Origin: Anaerolineae bacterium
Lineage (GTDB): Bacteria; Chloroflexota; Anaerolineae; CG2-30-64-16
Reading direction: 5' to 3'
DNA: 64,000 nucleotides
Assembly: GCA_040766655.1 (NCBI GenBank)
Contig: JAXGQB010000013.1
Span: 31-64,030 of the forward strand
In this document: positions 631 to 17,196 of the stretch, in pieces
Layout: each line of letters starts with the position of its first letter
How positions within the stretch are numbered: the stretch's first letter is position 1
The notes under the pieces: model-generated
Seen by the model: only the letters and a program-made list of their open reading frames with translations
Database searches by the model: none
Told to the model about the DNA's origin: nothing
Program-made: the position numbers and the translations under genes

Positions 631-659
631 TTGACACCACCCGTGCCGTGTGATACTCT
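631..659 (+). promoter_or_regulatory. Sigma-70-like promoter TTGACA-N17-TACTCT upstream of the riboswitch
   Basis: ttgaca at 631-636 and tactct at 654-659 with a 17-nt spacer. It lies just upstream of the aptamer. Confidence 0.4.
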
Positions 660-667
660 CCATTCCG

Positions 668-890
668 TAAGAATCGAATAGATGTCGTGGAGACCCGGGG
701 TAAGCCGGTGCAATGCCGGAGCTGTCCCGCAACTGTAAGCCCTAAATGCCAGGGCGAGCCAGAAAACCCGCCTCCACTTCGTTCTCGACGACCTTCGTGG
801 TAAAGGGAGTGGGAACCGGCGAAGTGCGTGCAGGTAGATGGCACCGCCGGCTCAGATCGCTCCCCTTGCCGATTTCGGGCAGGGGGTTTT
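668..890 (+). promoter_or_regulatory. Cobalamin (B12) riboswitch with intrinsic-terminator expression platform
   Basis: The aptamer core ggtaagccggtgcaatgccggagctgtcccgcaactgtaagc (699-740) matches the conserved GGTG..AAT.CCGG.GCTGTCCCGCAACTGTAA core. A B12-box-like gagccagaaaacccgcc sits at 756-772. A terminator hairpin ccccttgcc/ggcaggggg (862-886) is followed by tttt (887-890). Confidence 0.75.
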
Positions 891-940
891 CATTTAAACG
901 AGCCCCCGATTGCCCTCGAAACATTCGGGGTTACTGCACC

Positions 941-1951
941 GTGATTACCAACCTACACAAGGCCGCACTGGCGGCCATCCTGGCGGTCTTTCTCCTGTCC
1001 GGCGGTTTCGTTCCTGCGCAGGCGGGCGGAGATGTAGAAAGCGCCGCATGCCGTGCCATCCAGTGGCTCGATCGGGAGCAGAAGGCGGACGGCGGCTTCG
1101 GGTTCACGACCCAGACCAGCCCGGCCGTCACGGCCGATGTGGTCTATGCCCTGGCGCTGTTCGGCGAGGACCTCACCGGCCCGCGTTGGACCACCCCGGC
1201 GGGCAAGAACCCGCTCGACGCACTTGCCGCAGTCGCCGTGCCCAACTTTGTTGAGGCAGACCCCGGGCAGGCCGGCAAGGTGGCCCGCGCGGTCGCGTTA
1301 GCCGGTGGGAACCCGCGCAACTTCGGCGGTGTGGACCTGGTCCAGCTGATCCAGGATTTCTACGATCCTGCCACCGGCCTCTATCATCCCAACTTCCTCT
1401 TCAGGCACGCGTTGGCCGTCGAGGGACTCCTGCGCAGTGGCGTGACCCCGCCGCAGGGCGCCTACGATGCGCTGCTGGACGCGCAGCTCGACGACGGCGG
1501 CTGGTTCTGGGCACTCGGCGGCACGCAGAGCGACGTGGACACCACGGGCCGCGTGCTCCAGATCATCAGCGGCGTGGCCCAGGTCCAGGCGCCGGACGCG
1601 TACGCCAGGGCAGGCGACTGGTTGGCCGAGATCCAGTTGCCGGAGGGCGACTGGAATACGGGGGCGACTCCGGGGCCGGCAAACTCTAACTCGACTGCAC
1701 TCGCGGTCGGGGGGCTGTTGGCGGCCGGCCACGATCCGCAGGCCGCGCCGTATCTCAAAGGGGGCGTCAGCGCACTGGAGGCGCTCCTGGCCTTCCAGGA
1801 GCCTTCCGGGGCTTTCATCTATATCAATCTGCCCGGCCAGGAGGAGGTCCGCGTGATGGCAACCGCGGACGCCCTGACCGCTTTGGCCCCGCTGATCAGC
1901 GGAGGGCCCGTCTGCAAGTCGATCTACCTGCCCGTGCTCCTGGCTCACTGA
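941..1951 (+). CDS. Secreted alpha/alpha-toroid protein with prenyltransferase / squalene-cyclase-type repeats
   Basis: GTG at 941 is in frame with track ORF 746..1951, whose 5' part overlaps the riboswitch. Signal peptide AALAAILAVFLLSGGFVPAQA. Repeated motifs QKADGGFGF, QLDDGGWFWA, QLPEGDWNTG and QEPSGAFIY are typical of the terpenoid-cyclase/prenyltransferase repeat. The start is uncertain because the RBS is weak. Confidence 0.65.
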   Translation: MITNLHKAALAAILAVFLLSGGFVPAQAGGDVESAACRAIQWLDREQKADGGFGFTTQTSPAVTADVVYALALFGEDLTGPRWTTPAGKNPLDALAAVAVPNFVEADPGQAGKVARAVALAGGNPRNFGGVDLVQLIQDFYDPATGLYHPNFLFRHALAVEGLLRSGVTPPQGAYDALLDAQLDDGGWFWALGGTQSDVDTTGRVLQIISGVAQVQAPDAYARAGDWLAEIQLPEGDWNTGATPGPANSNSTALAVGGLLAAGHDPQAAPYLKGGVSALEALLAFQEPSGAFIYINLPGQEEVRVMATADALTALAPLISGGPVCKSIYLPVLLAH

Positions 1952-2003
1952 GCGGGTCAGCCGGGCAAGGTCCGACCCATATCATTTTAGGAGAGATCGT
2001 TTC

Positions 2004-2582
2004 ATGTCCCACCGCAACCTTGTCACGCTTGTTCTGCTGTTGATCCTTGTTTCCCTGTCTGCCGGCGCAGCGTTCGCGCAGACCGATGCCACCAAGCAGG
2101 TCGGCCTCGTCGTCACATTCGCGGACGGCACGTCGCATAAGGAGATCGTCACGGTGCCGGCCGGCGCCACCGCGCTCGAGGTGCTCTCGGCCGCAAAGCT
2201 GACGGTCGTCACGTCTGAGACCGCATTTGGCCCCGCGCTGTGCAAGATCAACAACACCGGCTGTCCCGCGGAAGACTGCTTCTGCGACGCGGCGGCCTTC
2301 TGGGCCTACTACCACCTGGCCGGCAATGCCTGGGCCGGCGCGATGGAGAGCGCCGGTGCCTACGTTCCTGCGAATGGATCGGTGGAGGGGTTCGCCTGGA
2401 GCGGGTTCGACAGCTCGTTCAACCCGACCGTGCAGCCGCCCGTCTACACGTTCGCACAGCTCATGGCCGAGCTGACGCCCGAGCCCGTCCCGGTGCCCGA
2501 GCCCGCGACCATCCTGTTGCTGGGCAGCGGCGTGGCCGCGCTGGCGGGGTACGCGCGTCGAAAACGCAGCGCGGCAGCGTAA
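2004..2582 (+). CDS. DUF4430-like (transcobalamin beta-domain-like) secreted protein with C-terminal PEP-CTERM sorting signal
   Basis: Signal peptide VLLLILVSLSAGAAFA. A beta-grasp-like segment ends in FWAYYHLAGNAWAGAMESAGAYVPANGSVEGFAWSG, with a Cys cluster CKINNTGCPAEDCFC. The C-terminus PVPEPATILLLGSGVAALAGYARRKR has the PEP motif, a TM helix and a basic tail. Confidence 0.7.
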   Translation: MSHRNLVTLVLLLILVSLSAGAAFAQTDATKQVGLVVTFADGTSHKEIVTVPAGATALEVLSAAKLTVVTSETAFGPALCKINNTGCPAEDCFCDAAAFWAYYHLAGNAWAGAMESAGAYVPANGSVEGFAWSGFDSSFNPTVQPPVYTFAQLMAELTPEPVPVPEPATILLLGSGVAALAGYARRKRSAAA

Positions 2583-2603
2583 GCAGCTGGTGAGTTTGCT
2601 ACT

Positions 2604-4088
2604 GTGAAGAGGTTCATCCGCCCGGTTCGGTCCCTTCTCCTGGCAGCCCTCCTTGTGGGGACCGCCGGCATCGCCGCGCAGACGCGCTGGGTGACCGCGC
2701 AGGAAATCGGCGGGCAAGCTGCCCCCGCGCAGCAGATCGGTGAAGGACCGAACCGTGCGGCCCTGGTGGTGAGCTTCGGCAACGGCATCGTACAGTCACG
2801 TTGCGTTGCCTTTCCCGAAGCAAGCATCACCGGGCAGGATTTGCTTCTTCGATCCGGCCTGGGGCCCGTGACGTCGCCGGAAGGTGCCGTCTGCGCCTTA
2901 GATGGTCAGGGCTGCCCGCCGGACGATTGCTTCTGCGCTTGCCCGTTTCCCGATTGCGAGTATTGGGCCTATTACCACTGGCAGGGCGACGCGTGGTCGT
3001 ATTCCAACGTGGGCGCCTTCGGCCAGAAGATCACGGACGGCTCACTTGAGGGGTGGTCCTGGGGCCAGGGCGACTTCACCCAGGCCGAGCCGCCGCCGGT
3101 GATTGCGTACGAGGACATCTGCCCGGCCGCGGCGCCGGCCACCGCGACGCCGACCGCGACGCCCACGCAACAGGTGGTCGTCATACAGCGGCCGGTCGTC
3201 ACCTTTCAGGCGGGGGCTGCGACCCTGGCGGCCGGTCAGTGTACGGCCCTATCGTGGCAGACGCAGGGCGCGGTCACGGTCCTGCTCGACGGCTCGCCGG
3301 TCAGCCAACTGGGCAGCCAACAGGTTTGCCCGCCGGCGACACAGCGCTATACGTTGATCGCGGCCAACAGCGCGGGGCAGAGCGTGGCCTACGTCGACAT
3401 TCAGGTCAGCGCGCCTGCAACCGCGACACCAACGGTGGTGGCCACCGCGACTGCGACGAGTGCATTGGGGCAGCCCACGGCGCCGGTGTCGGCAGTGAGC
3501 CCGGCGGCCACCCCCGTGATCCAGCCGCGGCCGGGTGTCGTCCAACCCGTGCCCACAATCTTCTCTCCGCCGACCGTGATGCCCGCGGCGCCGGTCGCCG
3601 CGCCTGCGCCGGAGATGGTGGGAGGGGTTCCGTTGGCGCCGACCGCGCAGCCGGACGTCGTCATCATCGCGTCGCCCTATCCTACGCCCACGCCCTTCGT
3701 GCTGGCGCCGCTGCCGACCGAGACGCCGCGGCCGCGCCGCGAGCTGGGTGCGGATGGCCGCGCAACACCCACGCCCATTCTGCCGGCAGGCGGCCTGGCA
3801 TCGGGCGGCGGCGAGATCGCATCTGGGCCGGCATCTGCAGCGCCGCGCTCCGGAGTTCCTTCCGCAGCCGATCGCATGGCGCAGGCGCGTGCGTTCGACC
3901 CGGATCTGCTGCCTGGCTATGCCGCCTATGCCCTGGCCCTGGCGTTCCTGGCAGGGCTCGGCTGGTTCGTCATGCACCGGAAAAACGGCCATCATTCGTC
4001 AACGGTCAAGCGGCCCGCGCAGGCGGACAAGCGGCCGTCTGACAGGTTGCGCGAGCTTCACAACGAGCAGGCGGGCCAATTGTCTTGA
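2604..4088 (+). CDS. Membrane-anchored paralogue: DUF4430-like domain, Ig-like domain, Pro/Thr/Ala-rich stalk and C-terminal TM anchor
   Basis: GTG start with a signal peptide. It carries the same Cys motif (CALDGQGCPPDDCFCACPFPDCEYWAYYHWQGDAWSY) as the preceding gene. A long PTPTAT/PAAP low-complexity stalk leads to the terminal TM AYALALAFLAGLGWFVMHRK. Confidence 0.65.
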   Translation: MKRFIRPVRSLLLAALLVGTAGIAAQTRWVTAQEIGGQAAPAQQIGEGPNRAALVVSFGNGIVQSRCVAFPEASITGQDLLLRSGLGPVTSPEGAVCALDGQGCPPDDCFCACPFPDCEYWAYYHWQGDAWSYSNVGAFGQKITDGSLEGWSWGQGDFTQAEPPPVIAYEDICPAAAPATATPTATPTQQVVVIQRPVVTFQAGAATLAAGQCTALSWQTQGAVTVLLDGSPVSQLGSQQVCPPATQRYTLIAANSAGQSVAYVDIQVSAPATATPTVVATATATSALGQPTAPVSAVSPAATPVIQPRPGVVQPVPTIFSPPTVMPAAPVAAPAPEMVGGVPLAPTAQPDVVIIASPYPTPTPFVLAPLPTETPRPRRELGADGRATPTPILPAGGLASGGGEIASGPASAAPRSGVPSAADRMAQARAFDPDLLPGYAAYALALAFLAGLGWFVMHRKNGHHSSTVKRPAQADKRPSDRLRELHNEQAGQLS

Positions 4089-5161
4089 CCACGGAAGAGA
4101 CGTTTCATCCTTCTGCCTGGTTGGCCTGGCTGGCCGCGGCCGTGCTGCCGGCGCTCTCCACGCGCAATCCGCTCTACCTCAGCCTCGTCATGATCTCAGT
4201 GGCCATCACGTACGGGGCGCTCGGCCGGCGCAATCCGACGGCACGGAGCTGGAGCGCGTTCGTGCGCTTCGGCGCGTTCCTGTGGCTCCTCACGATCCCG
4301 TTCGTCACGCTCACGTCACATCATGGCACGATCGTGCTGTTTCGCCTGCCTGCCAGCTGGCCCATCATCGGCGGCCCGATCACGCTGGAGGCATTCCTGT
4401 ACGGCCTGACCGGCGGGTTCGCGCTCATCACGCTGCTGCTGATCTTCGCGACGTTCAACGTCGCGGTGGACCAGGCGCGCCTGCTGCGCCTGACGCCCGG
4501 CTTCCTCTACCAGGTGGGCGTGGTGGCCGGCATCGCCGTGGCCTTCGTGCCCACCATGGTGGCCACCTGGCAGTCGATCCGTGAGGCGCAGCAGGTCCGG
4601 GGGCACAAGGTGCGCGGCATCCGGGACATGCTGCCCCTGATCATGCCGCTGCTGGTCACTGCGCTCGAACGCGCGATGCAGTTGGCGGAGTCCATGGAGG
4701 CGCGCGGCTTCGGCGGGCAGGTGTTGGTGGCGACGCCGCGGCAGCGGCTGGCACACCAGCTGGCGCTGTTGGCCGGGCTGGGGTTGCTCGGGCTGGGGCT
4801 GGCGGTCAACGGCTTTCTGCCGGGGATGCGGCTGGCCGGCACCCTGCAGCTGGGCGGCGGGATGGCGCTCATGGCGTGGGCCTTCTGGGACGTGGGCCGC
4901 CGCTCGAAACGCACCCGGTATCATCGCTGGCCTTGGACCCGGCTCGATCGCGTCGTGATGCTGCTGGGGCTCATCGGCGCACTCGGCTGGCTGGCGATCA
5001 TGATCGCCCAGCCGCAGTGGCTGCACTACTATCCCTACGCGCCCTATTCGCCCTGGCCGGTGTTCAATCCCCTGCCAGGCGGCATCCTCCTGCTGTTGGC
5101 CCTGCCCGGCGCATTATTGCGCCAACCTTACCAAGAGAGCGAGGTTGCCACGCCAGCGTGA
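4085..5161 (+). CDS. ecfT: ECF transporter transmembrane (T) component, EcfT/CbiQ family
   Basis: Polytopic membrane protein carrying the coupling-helix signature TALERAMQLAESMEARGFG. The TTG start overlaps the upstream stop (TTGA). Confidence 0.75.
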   Translation: MTTEETFHPSAWLAWLAAAVLPALSTRNPLYLSLVMISVAITYGALGRRNPTARSWSAFVRFGAFLWLLTIPFVTLTSHHGTIVLFRLPASWPIIGGPITLEAFLYGLTGGFALITLLLIFATFNVAVDQARLLRLTPGFLYQVGVVAGIAVAFVPTMVATWQSIREAQQVRGHKVRGIRDMLPLIMPLLVTALERAMQLAESMEARGFGGQVLVATPRQRLAHQLALLAGLGLLGLGLAVNGFLPGMRLAGTLQLGGGMALMAWAFWDVGRRSKRTRYHRWPWTRLDRVVMLLGLIGALGWLAIMIAQPQWLHYYPYAPYSPWPVFNPLPGGILLLLALPGALLRQPYQESEVATPA

Positions 5162-6807
5162 TAAACCTTTCACACGTGACCTACACCTACCCGGACCAGG
5201 CGCGTCCGGCCCTGGCCGACTTCAGCGTGGCCCTGCCCGAGGGGGAGCTGATCCTGGTGGTCGGGCCGTCGGGGGCCGGGAAATCGACGTTTCTGCGCAC
5301 CCTGAACGGCCTCGCGCCGCACTTCTACGGCGGCATCTGGTCCGGCAAGATCGAAGTCGGCGGGCGCAACCCGGTCGACGTCGCGCCGCGCGGGATGGCG
5401 GACCTGGTGGGCTTCGTCTTCCAGGATCCCGAGGCACAGTTCGTGGTTGACACGGTCGAGGACGAGCTTGCGTTCGCGATGGAGAACTTCGCGCTGCCGC
5501 CCGCCACCATGCGCAAGCGCATCGAGGAGGTGCTGGACCAGATGGGCATCGCGGCGCTGCGCCAGCGGCGGATCAGCGCGCTGTCCGGGGGCGAGAAGCA
5601 GCGCGTGGCGATCGCATCGGTGTTGGCGCTGCAGCCCGAGATCCTGGTGCTCGACGAGCCGACCTCGCAGCTCGATCCCCAGGCCGCGGAAGAAGTGCTG
5701 CTGGCCCTGCGGCAATTGAACGAAGACCAGGGCCTGACGGTGATCCTGAGCGAGCACCGGCTCGAACGCGTGGCGCAGTACGCGGACAGCATCCTTTACC
5801 TGCCTGCGCTCGGCGCCGCGCCCGTGCTGGACGAACCGCGCGCGATCATGGCGCAGCTGCCCCTGGTCCCGCCCCTGGTGGAGCTGGGCCGCGTGCTGAA
5901 CTGGGAGCCGCTGCCCCTGACGATCAAGGAGGGCCGGCCGTTTGCCCGCCGCGTCATGCCCAGGCTGGCATCGGCCGTGGCGTCCGAGCCGCCGGCCGCC
6001 GTCGTTTCCGCAACCGGTCAGGCGCCTGTTCCGGCGCCGGCGGAGCCGGTCATCTCGGTGCACGACCTGCACTATTCGTATCATGGGCACCGCGCGCTGC
6101 GCGGGCCGACCTTCGAGGTGCAGCGCGGCGAGTTCGTGGCCCTGATGGGGCGCAACGGCTCCGGCAAGAGCACCCTGCTGAAGGCGCTGGTCGGCCTGCT
6201 CACGGGCGACGAGGGCCGCGTGACTATCGCCGGCCTCGACACGCGCCGCGCGTCGATGGACGAGATCATCCGCCACGTCGGTTACGTGCCGCAGCATCCA
6301 GGCTCGCTCCTCTTCAGCGAGACGCTGGACGCGGAGCTGGCATTCACGCGCAAGAGCCACGGCATGCCGCCAGATCCGGAGGGCGATGCCGCGCTGCTCG
6401 CGCAGCTTGGGCTGGCTGCGGTGGCCGGCCGTGACCCGCGGGACCTCAGCGGCGGCGAGCAGCAGCGCGCGGCGCTGGCTGCGATCCTGGTGGCTGAGCC
6501 CCAGATCATCCTGCTGGACGAGCCCACGCGCGGGCTTGACTATGTGCAGAAACGCAACCTTGCGGATCTGCTGCTGGACCTGCGGCAGCAGGGGCGCACG
6601 GTGGTGATGGCGACCCACGACGTGGAGCTGGCGGCCTCCTGTGCGGACCGCGTCATTCTGATGGGCGAGGGCCAGATCGTGGTCGATGGGCCGGCGCGCG
6701 AGGTGATGAGCGATTCCCAGGTGTTCGCGTCGCAGATCAACAAGCTCTTCCGCGATCCGCATTACCTCGTGGTGCAGGACGTGCTGGCCGCGCTGGAACG
6801 GGCGTAG
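5158..6807 (+). CDS. ecfA: ECF transporter ATPase, fused EcfA1-EcfA2 (two ABC domains)
   Basis: GTG at 5158 overlaps the ecfT stop (GTGA). There are two Walker A sites (GPSGAGKST, GRNGSGKST) and two ABC signatures (LSGGEKQR, LSGGEQQR). The track ORF 4876.. has a spurious 5' extension. Confidence 0.85.
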   Translation: MINLSHVTYTYPDQARPALADFSVALPEGELILVVGPSGAGKSTFLRTLNGLAPHFYGGIWSGKIEVGGRNPVDVAPRGMADLVGFVFQDPEAQFVVDTVEDELAFAMENFALPPATMRKRIEEVLDQMGIAALRQRRISALSGGEKQRVAIASVLALQPEILVLDEPTSQLDPQAAEEVLLALRQLNEDQGLTVILSEHRLERVAQYADSILYLPALGAAPVLDEPRAIMAQLPLVPPLVELGRVLNWEPLPLTIKEGRPFARRVMPRLASAVASEPPAAVVSATGQAPVPAPAEPVISVHDLHYSYHGHRALRGPTFEVQRGEFVALMGRNGSGKSTLLKALVGLLTGDEGRVTIAGLDTRRASMDEIIRHVGYVPQHPGSLLFSETLDAELAFTRKSHGMPPDPEGDAALLAQLGLAAVAGRDPRDLSGGEQQRAALAAILVAEPQIILLDEPTRGLDYVQKRNLADLLLDLRQQGRTVVMATHDVELAASCADRVILMGEGQIVVDGPAREVMSDSQVFASQINKLFRDPHYLVVQDVLAALERA

Positions 6808-6817
6808 GCGAGGGCGC

Positions 6818-7633
6818 ATGCGATCACAGCGCATTGTCTCCGGGGCCATCATGGTCGTCGCCAGCCTGATCGGGGTGGGCGCCTTCCTCTACCCGTTCTT
6901 CCTGCCGTCGTTGGGCGCGGAGGGCATGGCCGCGCACACGAGCGACGCGCCGCTGCTGACCGTCGTGCTGCTTGGACTGTGCCTGGTCGCGGTGTTCGTC
7001 AACCTGACGGGCCGGCAGATGACGAGCAAGCTGATCGCCGTGTTGGGCATGCTGACCGCGGTCAACGCCGTGCTGCGCGCGGTGCCCGGTCCTGCCGGCT
7101 TCAACGCGATCTTCGTGCTGCCCATCCTTGCGGGTTACGCGTACGGCGCAACCTTCGGCTTCCTGTTGGGCGCCCTGTCGCTCCTGGTCTCCGCGCTGAT
7201 CGGCGGCGGGATCGGGCCGTGGCTGCCCTATCAGATGTTCGCCACCGGGTGGATGGGCCTGCTCTCCGCCTTGCTGCCGAAGTTTCCCCAACACCGCCGG
7301 TGGGAGCCGGCCATGCTGGCCGTGTGGGGCGGGGTGTTGGGGCTGATCTTCGGCGCGATGATGAACATCTGGTTCTGGCCCTTCATGCAGGGGGGTGCGG
7401 GCGCGGTGGCTGAGGGTGGCGCCTTCACGCCGGGGATGAGCGCGTGGCAGACGCTGAGGAACTACGCGGTCTTCTACGTGGCCACCAGCCTGTGGTGGGA
7501 TGTTGCCCGGGCCGTGGGCAACGCGGCGCTCATCCTGCTCTTCGGTGGCGCGATCCTGCGGGTCCTGCGCCGGTTCAAGCGCCGGTTCGGCTTCGAGCTG
7601 GAGCCCGAAGTGCGCCTGGCTGAGACCGGTTAG
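6818..7633 (+). CDS. ECF transporter substrate-specific (S) component, probably corrinoid-specific by context
   Basis: Small, very hydrophobic multi-TM protein directly after ecfT and ecfA in the riboswitch-controlled operon. Substrate is inferred from context only. Confidence 0.6.
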   Translation: MRSQRIVSGAIMVVASLIGVGAFLYPFFLPSLGAEGMAAHTSDAPLLTVVLLGLCLVAVFVNLTGRQMTSKLIAVLGMLTAVNAVLRAVPGPAGFNAIFVLPILAGYAYGATFGFLLGALSLLVSALIGGGIGPWLPYQMFATGWMGLLSALLPKFPQHRRWEPAMLAVWGGVLGLIFGAMMNIWFWPFMQGGAGAVAEGGAFTPGMSAWQTLRNYAVFYVATSLWWDVARAVGNAALILLFGGAILRVLRRFKRRFGFELEPEVRLAETG

Positions 7634-7640
7634 GCGCGAA

Positions 7641-7663
7641 ACCTCCGAGGCAACCTCGGAGGT
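7641..7663. terminator. Bidirectional hairpin between the convergent ECF operon and selD
   Basis: acctccgagg-caa-cctcggaggt forms a perfect 10-bp stem. Confidence 0.5.
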
Positions 7664-7705: not shown

Positions 7706-8755
7706 CTAGACGATCTCGATCCCGTCGCCCTCGACGACCTCGCCGATCACCCACCACTCCTGATCCCGCTCGCTGCAGAAGTGCCCGAACGCGCCCAGGT
7801 TTGCCGCGGGCACCGCGATGAGCAGCCCGCCGGAGGTTTGCGGATCATGCAGCAGAATCTGCTGCCAGTCTGCGAGATCCCTGGCAATCGTCACGAGTTG
7901 GCCATAGAACGCCTGGTTGCTGAACGCGCCGCCGGCAAAGGTCCACCCCTCGGCGTAACCGAGGGCCCCGGGGAGCCACGGCAGGTCGTCGAACCGGATG
8001 CGGAAGCGTACCTGCGCGGCATCGCTCATCTCCAGCGCGTGGCCGAGGAACCCGAAGCCGGTGATGTCGGTGACGGCACGCACGCCGGACGCCTGGCAGG
8101 CCTGGGCCGCGACGCGGTTGAGGCGCGTCATGCTGCGGATGGCCGCATCGAGGTGCTCGGGCGCGACCGTGTCGCGCTTGACCGCGGTCGTGATGACGCC
8201 GGTGCCCAGGGGCTTGGTCAGCACCAGCGCATCTCCCGGACGCGCGCCGCCCTTCATCATGATGCGATGGGGGTGGACGATGCCGGTCACCGCCAGGCCG
8301 TATTTCGGTTCCATGTCCTGGATCGTGTGCCCGCCGGCAATCGCGGCGCCGACCGAGCGCACGACCTCGGCGCCGCCCCGCAGGATCTCGGCCAGCACGG
8401 AGGCCGGCACGTTGGGCGGGAACGCGGCGATATTGAGCGCGAACAGGACTTCCCCGCCCATGGCGTAGACGTCGCTCATCGCATTGGCGGCCGCGATCGC
8501 GCCGTACTCGTAGGGCGTATCGACGATGGGCGTGAAGAAGTCCACCGTCTGGATCAGCGCCTGTTCATCGTTGAGCCGGTAGACGGCCGCGTCGTCCGGC
8601 GTGCCGAGACCGACTAACAGATCGGGAAACTGGTCGGCAGGAAAAAGATTGTCGAAAGCGCGCAGAACCTGCGCAAGCTGCTCAGGCGGCAGCTTGGAGG
8701 CTCAGCCTGCGCAGGAGCTCAGACTGGTGAGCTTCAGGATCTCTTCACGGGTCAC
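7706..8755 (-). CDS. selD: Selenide, water dikinase (selenophosphate synthetase) SelD, a selenocysteine-containing form with in-frame UGA at 8702-8704
   Basis: Track ORF 7706..8545 is the SelD body (DVYAMGG, GGHTIQD, KPLGTG). Continuing upstream in the same frame gives [74 protein letters not shown]. Here TGA occupies the position of the catalytic Cys/Sec in the glycine-rich N-terminal loop. GTG at 8755 is preceded by the AGGAG RBS at 8762-8766. Confidence 0.85.
8674..8696 (-). promoter_or_regulatory. Bacterial SECIS-like hairpin 5 nt downstream of the selD UGA
   Basis: The mRNA reads UGA-gccuc-CAAGCUGC-cgccuga-GCAGCUUG, an 8-bp perfect stem with a 7-nt loop. Confidence 0.65.
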
Positions 8756-8796
8756 GAAATCACTCCTGCCCGGCGGTCGTGCATCGGGCGGGAGTG

Positions 8797-8825
8797 ATTA
8801 TAGGTCGCGTCGGCGAGCGGGTCAA
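8797..8825 (-). promoter_or_regulatory. Promoter TTGACC-N17-TATAAT for selD
   Basis: On the reverse strand, ttgacc (8820-8825) and tataat (8797-8802) are separated by a 17-nt spacer, about 40 nt upstream of the start codon. Confidence 0.5.
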
Positions 8826-8842
8826 ACGCCGCCAGCCTTCGT

Positions 8843-8871
8843 TTGACAATACTCGCACTTGCGGGTACAAA
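8843..8871 (+). promoter_or_regulatory. Promoter TTGACA-N17-TACAAA for the tandem DarA-like gene
   Basis: ttgaca at 8843-8848 and tacaaa at 8866-8871 with a 17-nt spacer. Confidence 0.4.
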
Positions 8872-8937
8872 AAGAGGACACCGTGGAAGACCGGAAGGAA
8901 TTTTGCCGCGCACGTCGTTGTTACGCTGGAGATCGCC

Positions 8938-9621
8938 ATGTTTCTGATGTTCCTCATCATACAAAGCGAGGACGCGGACGTCCTGACGCGGCGTCTCAAC
9001 AACTCGGGCGTGCGGGTCACCCGGCTCAACACGATGGGTGCATTTCTGTCGCGCGGCAACGTCACGTTCCTGGTGGGCGCTCGTGAGGATGAAGTCGAAC
9101 GGGTGATGGACGTGGTGCGCAGGACCTGTCACACGCGCAAGCGTTACATGAATCCCCTGCCGTCCGGCGCGGAGCCGGCCCATCTCGCGATGGCAGCACC
9201 GGCCTATCCGCTGGAGGTCATCATCGGCGGCGCCACGGTGTTCATCATACCGGTCGCGCGTTTCGCCCGTCTGGGGAGAGGCGCTTCTGCCGGTGAGCCC
9301 GAAACATCGCCATCCACGACTGGAGGAAAAGGCATGCAGATGGTAGTGAGCATCGTGGGTGCAGACGATGCGGAACCCGTGACCCGGGCATTGATCGCCG
9401 CGCGTTACCGCGTCACCCGCATGAACACTGCGGGCGGCTTCTTCCGCCGCGGCAACGTCACGTTGCTGATCGGAGTCGAGGAGTCGGAGGTGGATGACGT
9501 CCTCCGGGTGATCGACACGAGTGTCCGCCAGCGCGAGCAGGCCAACCCGGTCGAATCCGGCATGCCGATGTACGGTGCAACGGTGTTCGTGCTCGACGCG
9601 GCCCGCTTCGAACGCCTGTAA
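8938..9621 (+). CDS. Tandem-domain PII-like cyclic-di-AMP receptor family protein (two YaaQ/DarA-type domains)
   Basis: ATG at 8938 follows a GGAGA RBS. Domain 1 is MFLMFLIIQSEDADVLTRRLNNSGVRVTRLNTMGAFLSRGNVTFLVG. Domain 2 is MQMVVSIVGADDAEPVTRALIAARYRVTRMNTAGGFFRRGNVTLLIG. Both match the pattern of the single-domain paralogue at 19764. Confidence 0.7.
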   Translation: MFLMFLIIQSEDADVLTRRLNNSGVRVTRLNTMGAFLSRGNVTFLVGAREDEVERVMDVVRRTCHTRKRYMNPLPSGAEPAHLAMAAPAYPLEVIIGGATVFIIPVARFARLGRGASAGEPETSPSTTGGKGMQMVVSIVGADDAEPVTRALIAARYRVTRMNTAGGFFRRGNVTLLIGVEESEVDDVLRVIDTSVRQREQANPVESGMPMYGATVFVLDAARFERL

Positions 9622-9639: not shown

Positions 9640-10998
9640 CTAGCCGATCAGGAGTGTTTCCTCGGGGTAGAAGATCGGCTGAGGTGGCCTGGGCTTTGCG
9701 AGCGCGACCACGATCGTCAGCGCCCCCAGCCTGCCCCAGAACATCATCGCCATAATGATCATCTGGCCGAAGAGATTGAGCTGACCGGTAAACGAGAGCG
9801 ACATGCCGGTCGTGGCAAAGGCCGAGACCACCTCGAACAGGGCCACCGTGGCCGGAACCCGGTGCGTGATCAGGATCAGCCACGCGGCCGCGCCGACCGC
9901 CAGCAGCGACACGGTGAGCACCGCGCCGGCACGGCGCACCGTTTCAGCTGCCAGCGTGCGGTGGCCCACCCGTGTGTCCGGCAGACCGCGCACGTAGGAC
10001 CAAAGCGACAGGATCATGACGGCGAACGTCCCCGTGGTGATCCCGCCTCCCATGGAGGCAGGCGCCGAGCCGATGAACATGAGCGGCATCAGGAGCCACC
10101 GGCTCGCTTCGGTGAGGTATTCCCAGCTTGGCAGCACGGCAAAGCCCGCGGTGCGGGCTGAGATGGCCTGAAATGCCGCCAGCTGGATGGCCCTGAGCGG
10201 CGGCGTACCGGCGAGCGACGCCCCAGCTTCGCCGATGAGGATGCCGATTCCTCCGAGGAGAATGAGCGCGGCATAGGTCGCCAGCGTGACGCGCGTGTGG
10301 AGTGTCAGACGTTTGCGGCGATCGGGCCAGGTCAGCAGGTCCGCGACGACCGGTATGCCCAATCCTCCCAATACGATGAGAGATCCGATCACGGTGAGGC
10401 TGAAGCCATCGGTCGGAAATGAGGGACTTGGGGTCGATGACCCGGTGAACAGCTCGAAGCCGGCGTTGCAGAACGCTGACGCCGCATGGAACAGGGCGTA
10501 GAACGCCGCGGTGGCCGGCCCCAACTCATCCACCCAGTTCAGCCACAACTGCATCGCACCGATGACCTGGATGATCGCACTTGTCAGGATCACGCGCCAG
10601 GTAACGGTCAGGATGGCCCTCGGCTCGGGCAGGCCGAGCGAATCGCGGAGGGCCAACCGATCCGACAGGTAGACCTTGCGGCCCAGCAGGCGGAGGATTA
10701 CCACCGCGCCCGCCATGAACCCGACGCCGCCGATCTCGATGAGGCTGAGCAGGATGACCTGGCCGAAGCGGGTCAGATCGCTGGCAGGCGTGATGGTGGC
10801 CAGGCCGGTGACCGCCAGCGCGGAGGTGGCGGTGAACGCTGCCTCGGCCAGGCTGAGCGGCCGGGTGGCTGCCTGCGGCAGGGAGAGGGCCAGCGTCCCC
10901 ACTACGACGAGCAGCGCGAGTCCGGCGATTAACCTCAATGCCGAGGGCAGCAAGTAGTGCCGGCCCGGTTGTCGCAGGCCGGATGTCCGCCATCCCAT
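9640..10998 (-). CDS. ktrB: Potassium uptake protein, TrkH/KtrB family membrane subunit
   Basis: Polytopic protein with repeated pore-loop motifs (TATSALAVTGLATI, IEIGGVGFMAG, AFCNAGF, GGLGIPV). Confidence 0.85.
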   Translation of the reverse strand: MGWRTSGLRQPGRHYLLPSALRLIAGLALLVVVGTLALSLPQAATRPLSLAEAAFTATSALAVTGLATITPASDLTRFGQVILLSLIEIGGVGFMAGAVVILRLLGRKVYLSDRLALRDSLGLPEPRAILTVTWRVILTSAIIQVIGAMQLWLNWVDELGPATAAFYALFHAASAFCNAGFELFTGSSTPSPSFPTDGFSLTVIGSLIVLGGLGIPVVADLLTWPDRRKRLTLHTRVTLATYAALILLGGIGILIGEAGASLAGTPPLRAIQLAAFQAISARTAGFAVLPSWEYLTEASRWLLMPLMFIGSAPASMGGGITTGTFAVMILSLWSYVRGLPDTRVGHRTLAAETVRRAGAVLTVSLLAVGAAAWLILITHRVPATVALFEVVSAFATTGMSLSFTGQLNLFGQMIIMAMMFWGRLGALTIVVALAKPRPPQPIFYPEETLLIG

Positions 10999-11667
10999 CT
11001 ACGAGATCTCCACGAGTGCCTCGGTCTGTTCGTTCGTGCCGATGGCGACGAGAATGTCGTTCCGATCGAAGACAAAGTCCGTGGACGGCGCGACGATGAC
11101 GCCTGCGTCGCGTTTCACGGCCAACAGCGTCACGCCCCAGCGAGCGCGCAGATTGGCCTCGTGAAGCGTCCGGCCGACGAAACTGGGCGGTGTCTGAAAT
11201 TCGATCACGCTGTGTTGCGTGCCCACGGGAAGCTGTTCGAGCAGCAGCGGTGCGGTCAACAAGTGCGCGAGGCGCTGGCCCGCTTCGTGCTCGGGCAGGA
11301 TGACGCGGTCTGCGCCGACCTTCAGCAGCACCGCTTGCTGGCGCTCGGTGAGCGCCTTGCACACCACCTTCCGGACCCCCAGGCTCTTGAGCGCGACAGT
11401 GGTCAGCACGTTGTTCTCGAAGTCCTGCCCGATGGCGACGATCACGGTGTCGAAGGACGTGATGTCCAATGCGCGCAGTGCGTCTTCGTCCGTGGAATCC
11501 AGTGCGACCGTCTGCGTCAACTCGTCCGCCATGTCCTGGACGATCTGGCGGTCATGGTCGATGCCCAGTACCGTGAAGCCGCGGCGCACGAGGGTCAGGG
11601 CTACACCACGGCCGAATCGGCCCAGGCCGATCACCGCGAATTCCGGACGCGCGTTTCTCCGTGCCAT
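10999..11667 (-). CDS. ktrA: Potassium uptake regulatory subunit, TrkA/KtrA (RCK_N and RCK_C domains)
   Basis: Rossmann motif FAVIGLGRFGRGVA with a C-terminal RCK_C-like segment. It sits directly adjacent to ktrB. Confidence 0.85.
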   Translation of the reverse strand: MARRNARPEFAVIGLGRFGRGVALTLVRRGFTVLGIDHDRQIVQDMADELTQTVALDSTDEDALRALDITSFDTVIVAIGQDFENNVLTTVALKSLGVRKVVCKALTERQQAVLLKVGADRVILPEHEAGQRLAHLLTAPLLLEQLPVGTQHSVIEFQTPPSFVGRTLHEANLRARWGVTLLAVKRDAGVIVAPSTDFVFDRNDILVAIGTNEQTEALVEIS

Positions 11668-12668: not shown

Positions 12669-13619
12669 ATGGCAGATGAACATCGCCTGAACAGCTACGA
12701 CGACAGGCCTGTCTACACCATCAAGACGGTGGTCCAGGACACGGGCATTGCACCGGCGACTCTGCGCGCCTGGGAGCGACGCTATGGGGTTCTTTCGCCC
12801 GGGCGCAGTGATGGCGGCTATCGGCTCTACTCGGAACGCGATGTTGCTACGTTGCGATGGCTCAAGGCCCAGGTGGATGCAGGGGTGTCCATCAGCCGTG
12901 CGGTTGCCCTGCTGCAGATGCATCACGAGGCAGGCGAGAATCCCGAGCTGGAGCTGCCGCGGGACGCGCGCTACGTGACTTCGTTCGGTGAGATTCGGGG
13001 CCAAGAGAGCCTGATCAAGGAGCTGGTTGAGGCGCTTGCTTCGTTTCAGGAGCCGCTCGCGGAAGGGGTGCTGAATGAGGCGTTCGCTCTGTACGCCGTA
13101 GATGTGGTCGCAGAACAGATCATTACGCCTGCGCTGGTCGAGATCGGCGAACGCTGGCATCTCGGTGAGCTGAGCATCGCACAGGAGCACTTCGCGACTG
13201 CGTTTCTGCGCCGCAGGCTGGCCATCCTCTTCCATGCCTATCCGCAGCCCTTAACAGGCCCGCTGGCGCTGACTGCTTCCGCACCTGCTGAGTGGCATGA
13301 TGTGGGCATCCTGCTCGTCTCCCTGGCCCTGCGCCGTCACGGCTGGCGGGTGCTTTACCTGGGCCAGAACATGCCGGCGGATGGTTTGGTACGCGAGGTG
13401 CGGAAGCTGAAGCCGGATCTCATTTGTATCTCGGCCGCCACAGAGGAAAGCGCAGTGGCCCTGGAACCCATCTACCGCGAGGTGATGGCGTTGTCGGAAG
13501 GGCGTCCCCAGCTCGCGTTCGGCGGCAACGCGTTTCGGGAGCACCCGGAGCTTGCCGAGCGTTATGCCGGGGCCAAGATTGCACAAAGTGCGACGGGGTT
13601 TGTCGAAGCGTTGAGCTGA
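12669..13619 (+). CDS. carH: CarH/LitR-type MerR-family regulator with adenosylcobalamin-binding domain (light-responsive repressor family)
   Basis: MerR HTH YTIKTVVQDTGIAPATLRAWERRYG. The four-helix-bundle signature W-x9-EH is present (WHLGELSIAQEH). The B12 lower-ligand motif is ExHxxG (EWHDVG), followed by ISAAT and FGG. Confidence 0.8.
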   Translation: MADEHRLNSYDDRPVYTIKTVVQDTGIAPATLRAWERRYGVLSPGRSDGGYRLYSERDVATLRWLKAQVDAGVSISRAVALLQMHHEAGENPELELPRDARYVTSFGEIRGQESLIKELVEALASFQEPLAEGVLNEAFALYAVDVVAEQIITPALVEIGERWHLGELSIAQEHFATAFLRRRLAILFHAYPQPLTGPLALTASAPAEWHDVGILLVSLALRRHGWRVLYLGQNMPADGLVREVRKLKPDLICISAATEESAVALEPIYREVMALSEGRPQLAFGGNAFREHPELAERYAGAKIAQSATGFVEALS

Positions 13620-16089: not shown

Positions 16090-17196
16090 GTGATCCGCCC
16101 GTTTGGTTTGCACGACATCTGGATGGTGCGACGCCTGCAACGCAGTGGCATCACCTTGACCGTCGAGCAGATGTTAACACATCCACACGAACCGCTCTGG
16201 ACGGCGCTTACGGCGCCCTGGCCGTGGGCCGGCGGGTCGGTGGGCGCGCTTGGGCGCGGTGGCGTTGCCACATTCGTGTTCGATGAGACGATCGATGGGC
16301 AGCGCAGGCACGGCTTTGCGCAACTGATGAAGCGCGCCAGCCGGCCAGAAGCGGACCTCCTTCACATCGCACCTGCCGCGCCCTTTGCGGAGACTGATGA
16401 GCGCACCATCGAGGTGATCTGGAACCGGTTGCTGGGGCACTGCTCCCTGGCTGCGGCCAGTCACAGTCTGCAGCGCATCTTTGCCAGCGCGCCGGAAGGG
16501 TGCTTCGAGCAGACCAGCCTCAAGCAGGCTGGTTTCTCTCATTATGCGCGGGAACGGATCTATCGGTTGGCGGTCGCGCCGGTAACTACGGAACGCGTCG
16601 CCGGGATCAGGCCGCAGCTGCCGCGTGATAGCTGGGCGCTTCAACGGCTCTATGCCCGCGGCACGCCCAAGCTGGTCCAGCAGGCCGAGGGCGCGATGGG
16701 CGGCAACGCGGGCGCGCCGCTCCTTTCGTGGTGGGAGCCTCACGAGTGGGATGGCCTGGTGTGGGAGCCGGCCGGCGAAGTGCGCGGCGCGGTCCAGGTG
16801 CACCGCGGCCGATCCGGTCACTGGCTGAGAGTGCTCGGCGCTAACGAGTTGTCGGCCCGCGAAGTGCGGCTCCTGATCGGGCAGGGCCTGCAACGGCTTA
16901 CCGAGAAGGTGGCGCCGCGCGATGGCAGCGATGATGCCGTCTATGTGACCGTCCGCGACTATGACGTCAATCTGAGCGCGGCGTTGACTGGTTTTGGATT
17001 TGCCCTGTTCATGGAACGGGCTCGCATGGTCAAGCACACGTCGGCGGGTGTCCGGGTATCCGAGCCCATGCCGGCTGCCGGGCGTGAGATGGTCGGTGAG
17101 TTGCCGGTGCGCGGGCCGGCGGGCTGCGATGCGCTGGCCGACCGCTCCATGCCGCTCGGCCATAAGCCCTTAGAAAACACGAGGATTTTCAGATAA
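16090..17196 (+). CDS. Hypothetical protein (possible duplicated GNAT-like fold, not established)
   Basis: A 368-aa ORF with GC3-rich codon usage consistent with coding. A possible promoter TTGTCA-N16-TAGAAT lies at 15997-16024. No diagnostic motif was recognised. Confidence 0.5.

Follow-up and report, generated by a model that had tools for sequence, protein, structure and literature searches.

Introduction

The acquisition of vitamin B12 by bacteria that lack BtuFCD or an outer membrane is only partly known. In Lactobacillus delbrueckii, transport of cobalamin and cobinamide has been demonstrated for ECF-CbrT, the sole biochemically proven energy-coupling factor (ECF) importer of B12 (PMC5997447). 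In Latilactobacillus sakei, deletion of lsa1836-1840 lowered 57Fe-heme accumulation 5- to 8-fold, and complementing or overexpressing these genes brought it back or increased it; the authors left the choice between heme and cobalamin undecided, and they already likened the two extracellular proteins to the two transcobalamin halves, alpha and beta, feeding an ECF transporter. The split-transcobalamin idea is thus in the literature for lsa1836-1840 and is not new here. We analyzed a 64-kb stretch of DNA from an Anaerolineae bacterium (contig JAXGQB010000013.1), hereafter called the window, in which a cobalamin riboswitch precedes six genes (g1 to g6) for a secreted alpha/alpha-toroid protein, two surface proteins with beta domains resembling that of transcobalamin, and an ECF transporter. 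We consider this operon likely to be a B12-repressed importer of corrinoids (cobalamin and/or cobinamide) in Anaerolineales-like Chloroflexota.

Results

RF00174 was the sole Rfam family matched across the whole window. The match covers the full-length model above its gathering score (49.0 bits; Table 1), which bears out the cobalamin riboswitch of the initial annotation, and the aptamer, a compact variant, has shortened peripheral stems. Between the aptamer and g1, beginning 73 bases 3' of the former, a hairpin (862-886) with a G+C-rich stem of 9 bp, including 7 G-C pairs, is followed by TTTTCATTT, giving the leader the terminator-like hairpin and U-tract of an expression platform. Judging from its family, the leader would respond to cobalamin.

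Six genes on the plus strand are tightly packed after the riboswitch, in the order toroid, beta, beta, EcfT, EcfA-A', and S component. The stop and start codons of g3 and g4 overlap in TTGA (4085-4088), as do those of g4 and g5 in GTGA (5158-5161), which shows that the operon is tight; g2 is preceded by an AGGAG ribosome-binding site. The GTG codon at 941, which had been chosen as the start of g1, is correct, since the alternative ATG at 746 falls within the aptamer and was rejected, and since 91%-identical orthologues are 336 aa long. All of the units that the initial annotation had placed in 631-7663 are present, each where it had been put, except that the leader had been started at 631, about 40 nt too early.

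Table 1. The riboswitch-led operon and its flanking signals (positions in the window)
Feature	Position	Strand	Evidence and remarks
Cobalamin riboswitch aptamer	674-789	+	RF00174, 49.0 bits (gathering score, 31.5), E 3.3e-9, model positions 1-189 (full)
Intrinsic-terminator-like hairpin and U-tract, expression platform	862-896	+	Terminator scan; minimum-free-energy fold of 790-900
g1, secreted alpha/alpha-toroid protein, 336 aa	941-1951	+	Signal peptide ending AQA; AlphaFold2 model; Foldseek; PF13243
g2, beta-domain protein	2004-2582	+	Signal peptide aa 1-25; beta-like domain aa 29-155 with four conserved Cys; PEP-CTERM aa 163-188
g3, beta-domain protein	2604-4088	+	Signal peptide, paralogous beta domain, short globular segment, stalk, transmembrane anchor, tail
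g4, EcfT (T component)	4085-5161	+	PF02361 (CbiQ), 42.9 bits, E 5.5e-11; TTG start overlaps g3 stop
g5, fused EcfA-EcfA' double ATPase	5158-6807	+	TIGR04520, 378 bits; TIGR04521, 358 bits; two ABC_tran domains; GTG start
g6, ECF S component, 271 aa	6818-7633	+	~7 hydrophobic segments; homologues carry PF12822
Hairpin 3' of the g6 stop, possible operon terminator	7642-7662	+	Read from the sequence; 9-bp stem, 3-nt loop, weak U-tract

The fold of the beta-like domain of g2 (~130 aa) links the operon to eukaryotic B12 carriers. When the AlphaFold2 model of g2 (predicted local distance difference test, pLDDT, 87.4) was searched with Foldseek, its sixteen best PDB matches were beta domains of transcobalamin, haptocorrin, and intrinsic factor. 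It superimposes on the isolated human transcobalamin beta domain with and without cyanocobalamin (5np4 and 5no0) with TM-scores of 0.79-0.82, root mean square deviations of 2.2-2.7 Å, and E 6e-6, and it also matches 4kki, 2pmv, and, with a TM-score of 0.85, 3u7z, which we take to be a solved DUF4430 protein (E range, 6e-6 to 1.5e-3). Below 3u7z, the scores drop to generic ubiquitin-like folds. By structural superposition, the g2 model thus has the transcobalamin-beta/DUF4430 fold.

The sequence profiles assign the domain otherwise. Neither g2 nor g3 matches PF14478 (DUF4430) at E<=0.1 in Pfam, nor a DUF4430 model in NCBIfam, and their homologues, up to 93% identical, carry precomputed matches to PF28005 ("SCO2322", marked "weak" in the one locus for which strengths are listed). 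The label "DUF4430-like" that both proteins had received is therefore right as a fold and wrong as a family: the structure matches, the DUF4430 hidden Markov model (HMM) does not, and the matches of the homologues place the beta domain, probably, in the SCO2322 family (PF28005). The scores against NCBIfam NF040672 (SCO2322_fam) were 24.2 and, for g3, 28.9 bits, under the cut-off of 85. Neither the toroid nor the beta proteins had a Pfam or PDB sequence match to transcobalamin-type (cobalamin-binding) families. When the PDB was searched by sequence and by profile, neither the beta domain nor the S component had a significant match, and the best ones, FolT (E 1.4) and AcrIIA2 (E 0.85), were taken as chance.

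The two beta proteins appear to be held at the cell by different means. g2 carries a PEP-CTERM sorting signal above the cut-offs of both models (PF07589, 27.7 bits versus 20.7; TIGR02595, 23.6 versus 16), so it is probably anchored at the surface rather than freely secreted, as it had first been read; an exosortase was not found among the window genes scanned. For g3, the earlier description as a membrane-anchored paralogue on a long Pro/Thr stalk agrees with both hydropathy and BLASTP. Its beta-like domain (aa ~47-175; nt 2742-3128) is followed by a further short globular segment (aa ~190-270), a long stalk rich in Pro, Thr, and Ala, one transmembrane helix (aa 435-458; nt 3906-3977), and a basic cytoplasmic tail. 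The beta domains of g3 and g2 are paralogous, with 32% identity over 131 aa (E 7e-19).

The AlphaFold2 model of g1 is an alpha/alpha toroid (pLDDT, 91.8; predicted TM-score, 0.86), which, together with its signal peptide, confirms that g1 encodes a secreted toroid protein. Its top Foldseek matches are the single-domain squalene-hopene cyclase-like structures 8paj and 8pak (E 2e-9), with MstE and drimenyl diphosphate synthase also among the matches. The alpha domain of transcobalamin follows from rank 30, with significant but lower scores (E ~1e-4; TM-score, 0.44-0.51). The proposal that the toroid corresponds to the alpha half of transcobalamin is thus upheld as far as these matches go, but terpene cyclases are closer, and nine related loci have no toroid. 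In Pfam, g1 lies just at the cut-off of PF13243 (SQHop_cyclase_C; 26.5 bits versus 26.1), and its score against NCBIfam NF053823 (SCO2321_fam, membrane protein) is 73.7 bits, under the cut-off of 300. Apart from the signal peptide, hydropathy revealed no transmembrane or other hydrophobic segment and no membrane anchor in g1. The DxDD motif of class II cyclases aligns with DVDTT in g1, and D198, D200, T202, and G203 are invariant across the g1 family, which makes cyclase activity unlikely; as the catalytic DxDD is not conserved and a signal peptide is present, we rejected g1 as a class II terpene cyclase of the squalene-hopene cyclase superfamily. The C-terminal tail of g1 (1915-1951), P-x-C-[RK]-x-x-Y-L-P-x-x-L (C-x3-YLP), is kept in the toroid family, was modeled at low confidence, and may serve in docking or sorting.

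The annotation of g4 to g6 as EcfT, a fused EcfA1A2, and an S component is sustained by PF02361, by TIGR04520 and TIGR04521 (both cut-offs are passed by g5), and by the homologues of g6, more than 1400 in number, most of them with PF12822 and called "ECF transporter S component" by their sources; g6 itself had no match in the local Pfam copy. The T component, two ATPase domains, and the S component are encoded in one operon by overlapping or abutting genes, the arrangement of a group I (dedicated) ECF transporter. The structure of ECF-CbrT, which should be among the solved structures searched, gave no match to g6 at E<=10. Because the ECF parts are encoded together and g6 has no significant match among solved structures, we assign g4-g6, by sequence, to a dedicated importer whose S component falls in no structurally solved subfamily. 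The initial annotation had named clustering of g6 with CbiM or ThiT as a reason to abandon a corrinoid substrate, and g6 resembles neither; it has no PF01891 match in Pfam or NCBIfam and no CbiM-type N terminus, and the operon contains no CbiN-like gene.

A pattern scan covering a single genome for each GTDB species yielded 47 loci, all from metagenome-assembled genomes of Chloroflexota (Anaerolineae, Caldilineales, and "Chloroflexia"); with one more (L001), found by exact-protein look-up, 48 related loci were available. In the nearest GTDB locus, g2 is 93% identical. According to tblastn, the order toroid, beta-PEP, beta-transmembrane, EcfT, EcfA-A', and S is kept in the 47 loci wherever the contig extends, save for nine without a toroid. 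Rfam places a cobalamin-type aptamer upstream on the same strand in 45 of the 48; two of the three loci lacking it are cut off upstream, and the third is the sister of a locus just over the threshold. A terminator-like hairpin with a U-tract lies shortly after the aptamer in 44 of these 45 leaders, as judged by our own hairpin/U-tract scan. The toroid is the first gene in 36 riboswitch-led loci out of 45. All nine loci without it share a CNCA variant of the four-Cys motif that also occurs in five loci with a toroid, so the toroid was apparently lost once, in a single subclade. The presence of CNCA in five toroid loci makes it a lineage trait, and we rejected the four invariant Cys of g2 as a marker of toroid pairing.

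One locus ties these genes to corrinoid metabolism. In L026 (3588-8634), translations read by eye indicate cobO-, cobT-, cobS-, and cobU-like genes between the riboswitch and the toroid, so that the leader is followed by the cob-like genes, the toroid, both beta genes, and the ECF genes. cobO, cobT, cobS, and cobU form a cobinamide-salvage set that converts imported cobinamide to adenosylcobalamin, and by gene content L026 looks like a combined operon for corrinoid salvage and uptake. In two further loci, L048 (7509-9809) and L044, the toroid is doubled, a 766-aa open reading frame with two toroid domains lying 5' of the beta-PEP gene.

The beta domain extends well beyond these loci. Its profile alone recovered 2,791 representatives at E<=1e-3 and 1,406 at E<=1e-10 (50%-identity clusters), from at least Chloroflexota, Actinomycetota, and Bacillota, and the usual architecture is a signal peptide, the domain, a Pro-rich stalk, and an anchor. 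Beta and toroid domains occur in a single chain in five proteins (P0366, P0370, P0387, P0415, and P0410). P0496 (461 aa) combines an SCO2322-type beta domain (aa 43-175) with a Peripla_BP_2 domain of the BtuF/FhuD type (PF01497, E 1.8e-34), a fusion that we regard, from the domain matches, as a second kind of link between the beta domain and the uptake of B12, heme, or siderophores. PF14478 is matched by two of 132 diverse family members; the one identified, P0380 (28.6 bits), provides a thin sequence bridge to DUF4430. A further candidate, P0362 (437 aa, toroid then beta), was rejected as a fusion in transcobalamin order: it shares 61% identity with g1 and probably reflects read-through between neighboring orthologues or their mis-calling.

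Relatives in cultured organisms were found by tblastn of g6 against PLSDB, on large linear replicons of Streptomyces, Embleya, Kitasatospora, and Arthrobacter (35-41% identity) and on a replicon of Latilactobacillus curvatus (30%); the g3 beta domain gave no match on plasmids. In Streptomyces sp. SAT1 (NZ_CP016083.1), a same-strand cobalamin riboswitch is followed by genes for a 911-aa protein composed of a beta domain, two toroids, and a transmembrane anchor, then for a 313-aa beta-stalk-transmembrane protein, EcfT, the ATPase, and an S component 41% identical to g6; the locus adjoins a riboswitch-controlled metE. An hhalign comparison of the beta profile with the N-terminal domain of the 911-aa protein gave a probability of 88% (E 3e-6). 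The Embleya locus (L052) has a same-strand cobalamin riboswitch and then the toroid, beta, T, AA', and S as separate genes. The loci of Streptomyces NBC_01237 and Kitasatospora show only partial minus-strand aptamer matches upstream and were not counted as riboswitch led. Further cobalamin riboswitches (82-87 bits) with other genes downstream lie near the Kitasatospora locus (L053, 9739-9935, plus strand) and near the Embleya locus (L052, 344-564, plus strand).

The L. curvatus locus (L050) encodes an LPXTG-anchored toroid, a "DUF4430 domain-containing protein," EcfT, the ATPase, and an S component, with a Dyp-type peroxidase a few genes away, and it agrees with what was published on L. sakei lsa1836-1840 and lsa1831. 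Its order is that of the window, with identities of 30% for S, 34% for AA', 25% for T, and 34% for the toroid. The beta proteins share the fold only: when hhalign was used to compare the beta-domain profile with the DUF4430 domain of L. curvatus, the probability was 0.1, with no signal. No cobalamin riboswitch was found in the L. curvatus locus. With a toroid, a protein of the beta fold, T, fused AA', and S, and with homologous transporter parts, the window operon is of the lsa1836-1840 type.

Elsewhere in the window, 38 of the 43 predicted genes outside the operon were scanned, and among these there was no BtuF/BtuCD, no cob or cbi gene, and no CbiM; the absence of BtuF/BtuCD reported by the initial annotation therefore holds for this set. 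A CarH/LitR-like regulator (12669-13619, plus strand) with a MerR-type helix-turn-helix, B12-binding_2, and B12-binding domains lies 5 kb from the operon. From its domains, it would be cobalamin dependent and probably light sensing, and the presence of such a B12-binding regulator indicates that the organism uses B12.

The hairpin downstream of g6 was not called by the terminator scan. A large cluster of the purine-catabolism/molybdenum hydroxylase type, mostly on the minus strand, occupies 27546-55608, with a further part at 7706-8545 (minus strand), and resembles the ygeW-ygfK/xdh "selenium-dependent molybdenum hydroxylase" region of E. coli. It comprises a YqeC and MobA-like fusion; two xanthine-dehydrogenase-type Mo subunits with flavin adenine dinucleotide (FAD) and 2Fe-2S subunits; a YgfK-like 1133-aa Fer4_20/Pyr_redox_2 protein; an amidohydrolase; two genes like those of ornithine carbamoyltransferase; a carbamate-kinase-like gene; an M20 peptidase; two pyridoxal-phosphate enzymes; and a GntR/UTRA regulator. 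Convergent to the ECF operon lies a gene of the AIR synthase family, possibly SelD-like, which is also a neighbor in at least seven related loci. A tandem cyclic di-AMP receptor with two CdAMP_rec domains (8779-9621, plus strand) adjoins a convergent TrkH/TrkA pair (9640-11667, minus strand), and from their families these genes plausibly form a cyclic di-AMP/K+ regulatory module. A 368-aa open reading frame (16090-17196, plus strand) has a good coding signature (G+C content at third codon positions, 0.78) and no Pfam match at E<=1e-5.

Discussion

Import of corrinoids by a capture system that feeds an ECF transporter, as the initial annotation had proposed, is the best explanation of this operon. 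It is supported by the beta and alpha folds, by the riboswitch found in nearly all of the related Chloroflexota loci, by the cob-like genes of L026, by the fusion proteins, and by an S component that is of neither the CbiM nor the ThiT kind. When cobalamin is abundant, it would bind the leader aptamer, and the hairpin and U-tract would terminate transcription, switching the operon off; when B12 is scarce, the six proteins would be made. g2, through its PEP-CTERM anchor, and g3, through its stalk and transmembrane helix, would then display their transcobalamin-beta-like domains and take the corrinoid outside the cell. We infer that these domains bind the corrinoid and that the ligand is handed to g6, from which EcfT and EcfA-A' would import the presumed substrate using ATP.

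The least certain step is the one assigned to the toroid, in which g1 would dock on a beta domain and close over the ligand, as fusions and synteny suggest. As a matter of argument, docking fits because g1 is unanchored and both beta proteins appear to be tethered. That g1 closes over the ligand as in transcobalamin seems to us close to an even chance, or somewhat below it. The fuller proposal of a bacterial non-covalent two-chain transcobalamin, in which a tethered beta protein and a free toroid enclose the corrinoid and pass it on to the S component of an ECF transporter, is one that we put forward tentatively, as doubtful yet worth considering.

Several points weigh against the capture of corrinoids by such alpha and beta parts. 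In sequence, the beta domain matches neither transcobalamin nor Pfam DUF4430, and the AlphaFold2 models were built on shallow alignments of 36-37 close orthologues. In these models, the toroid is structurally nearer class II terpene cyclases than transcobalamin. Nine riboswitch-led loci have no toroid gene, the beta-PEP gene standing directly after the riboswitch. An obligate alpha plus beta pair is not established, because the toroid is nearer cyclases and because of these nine loci. Neither g6 nor its 27-sequence family profile has detectable similarity to any solved S component. Our literature search found no paper that tested corrinoid binding by any bacterial member of the family. Finally, among homologous operons only lsa1836-1840 has been studied by experiment, and its deletion abolished heme uptake in large part (5- to 8-fold), which touches on the objection that the initial annotation had itself foreseen, an S component that clusters with characterized non-corrinoid ones.

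Some of these points would also suit an operon in which the transporter and the beta proteins import corrinoids while the toroid is no transcobalamin-like partner and has another extracellular role, such as binding a different ligand or a component of the cell envelope, or serving as a scaffold. The nine loci keep both beta genes and the ECF genes under the riboswitch, and the beta domain of human transcobalamin was crystallized alone with cyanocobalamin (5np4). g1 best matches terpene cyclases (E 2e-9), transcobalamin appearing only from rank 30, and the toroids of L048 and L044 are doubled. Even so, we think this unlikely. The toroid stands first in 36 of the 45 riboswitch-led loci, and those without it form one subclade; fusions of toroid and beta domains are repeated and of varied architecture; the DxDD motif is degenerate (DVDTT); and an unanchored g1 would be expected to diffuse off a cell without an outer membrane unless it were bound to an anchored partner.

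Import of heme or another non-corrin tetrapyrrole, as proposed for L. sakei, is considerably less probable still. The 5- to 8-fold loss of 57Fe-heme accumulation on deletion of lsa1836-1840, restored by complementation, does favor it, as does the L. curvatus locus, with the same gene order, an S component 30% identical to g6, and a toroid 34% identical to g1. However, that locus has no riboswitch and has a Dyp peroxidase nearby, whereas a cobalamin riboswitch is present in the window, in 45 of the 48 Chloroflexota loci, and in two Actinomycetota loci; L026 ties the genes to cobO, cobT, cobS, and cobU; and at 30% identity the substrate need not be shared. The least probable of all is import of cobalt, as by the B12-riboswitch-controlled CbiMNQO, or of a small B12 building block (dimethylbenzimidazole or alpha-ribazole), since, although B12 riboswitches commonly control such transporters and the T component matches a Pfam family named CbiQ, PF02361 is the generic ECF T family, the lack of a CbiM match (PF01891), a CbiM N terminus, and CbiN sets the operon apart from CbiMNQO, and a metal ion would hardly call for three surface proteins with corrinoid-carrier folds.

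The riboswitch clearly indicates corrinoids as the substrate in Chloroflexota and Streptomycetaceae, while the one tested relative has been assigned to heme. The riboswitch-led members are thus the cleanest candidates for deciding the substrate, the use of external binding proteins by ECF transporters, and the origin of eukaryotic B12 carriers. If the two-chain reading were true, ECF transporters could use extracytoplasmic binding proteins, against the textbook view, and eukaryotic B12 carriers would plausibly have arisen from the fusion of such bacterial parts, of which fused forms exist in Streptomyces. The concept being already published, the value of the present survey lies in its breadth and in a cleaner regulatory argument.

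Compared with known systems, the window operon has the folds of transcobalamin, intrinsic factor, and haptocorrin, an alpha toroid (g1, E 1e-4) and a small beta domain (g2, TM-score 0.8). The eukaryotic carriers are, however, single soluble chains, alpha then beta, whereas here the parts are encoded by separate genes and the beta proteins are predicted to be anchored. As in BtuF-BtuCD, B12 would be captured outside the cytoplasm and then imported at the expense of ATP, often under a B12 riboswitch, but the binding protein there has an unrelated fold and the transporter belongs to an unrelated class. Like ECF-CbrT, the operon encodes an ECF-type importer that would serve an organism without BtuFCD. 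ECF-CbrT relies on a shared group II module, and the paper describes no toroid or beta proteins (PMC5997447), whereas the window operon has its own module.

With lsa1836-1840, the window operon shares a toroid, a beta-like protein, EcfT, fused EcfA-A', and S in a common transcription order, the S, T, A, and toroid parts being homologous. In contrast, the lactobacillus beta protein belongs to Pfam DUF4430, has an N-terminal anchor, and shows no profile similarity. The lactobacillus toroid is LPXTG anchored and accompanied by one beta protein, whereas the window toroid is unanchored and accompanied by two. Moreover, the lactobacillus locus lacks a cobalamin riboswitch, and experiments on it point to heme, while the window operon is riboswitch led.

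Closer in regulation is the Streptomycetaceae SCO2321/SCO2322 type (SAT1 and Embleya), which likewise has a cobalamin riboswitch, toroid plus beta, EcfT, a fused ATPase, and S. SEED reportedly annotates SCO2323-2325 as a predicted ECF transporter of cobalamin, following Rodionov et al. 2009. SAT1 also has a beta protein like g3, with a Pro-rich stalk and a transmembrane anchor. There, the other beta domain is fused to two toroids and a transmembrane segment in one chain without PEP-CTERM, unlike the separate genes and PEP-CTERM signal of the window. g1-g3 fall far under the NCBIfam cut-offs (74 versus 300; 24-29 versus 85) and are relatives, not members, of the SCO2321/SCO2322 models. New here are the Chloroflexota representative, its two tethered beta paralogues, and its predicted PEP-CTERM anchor.

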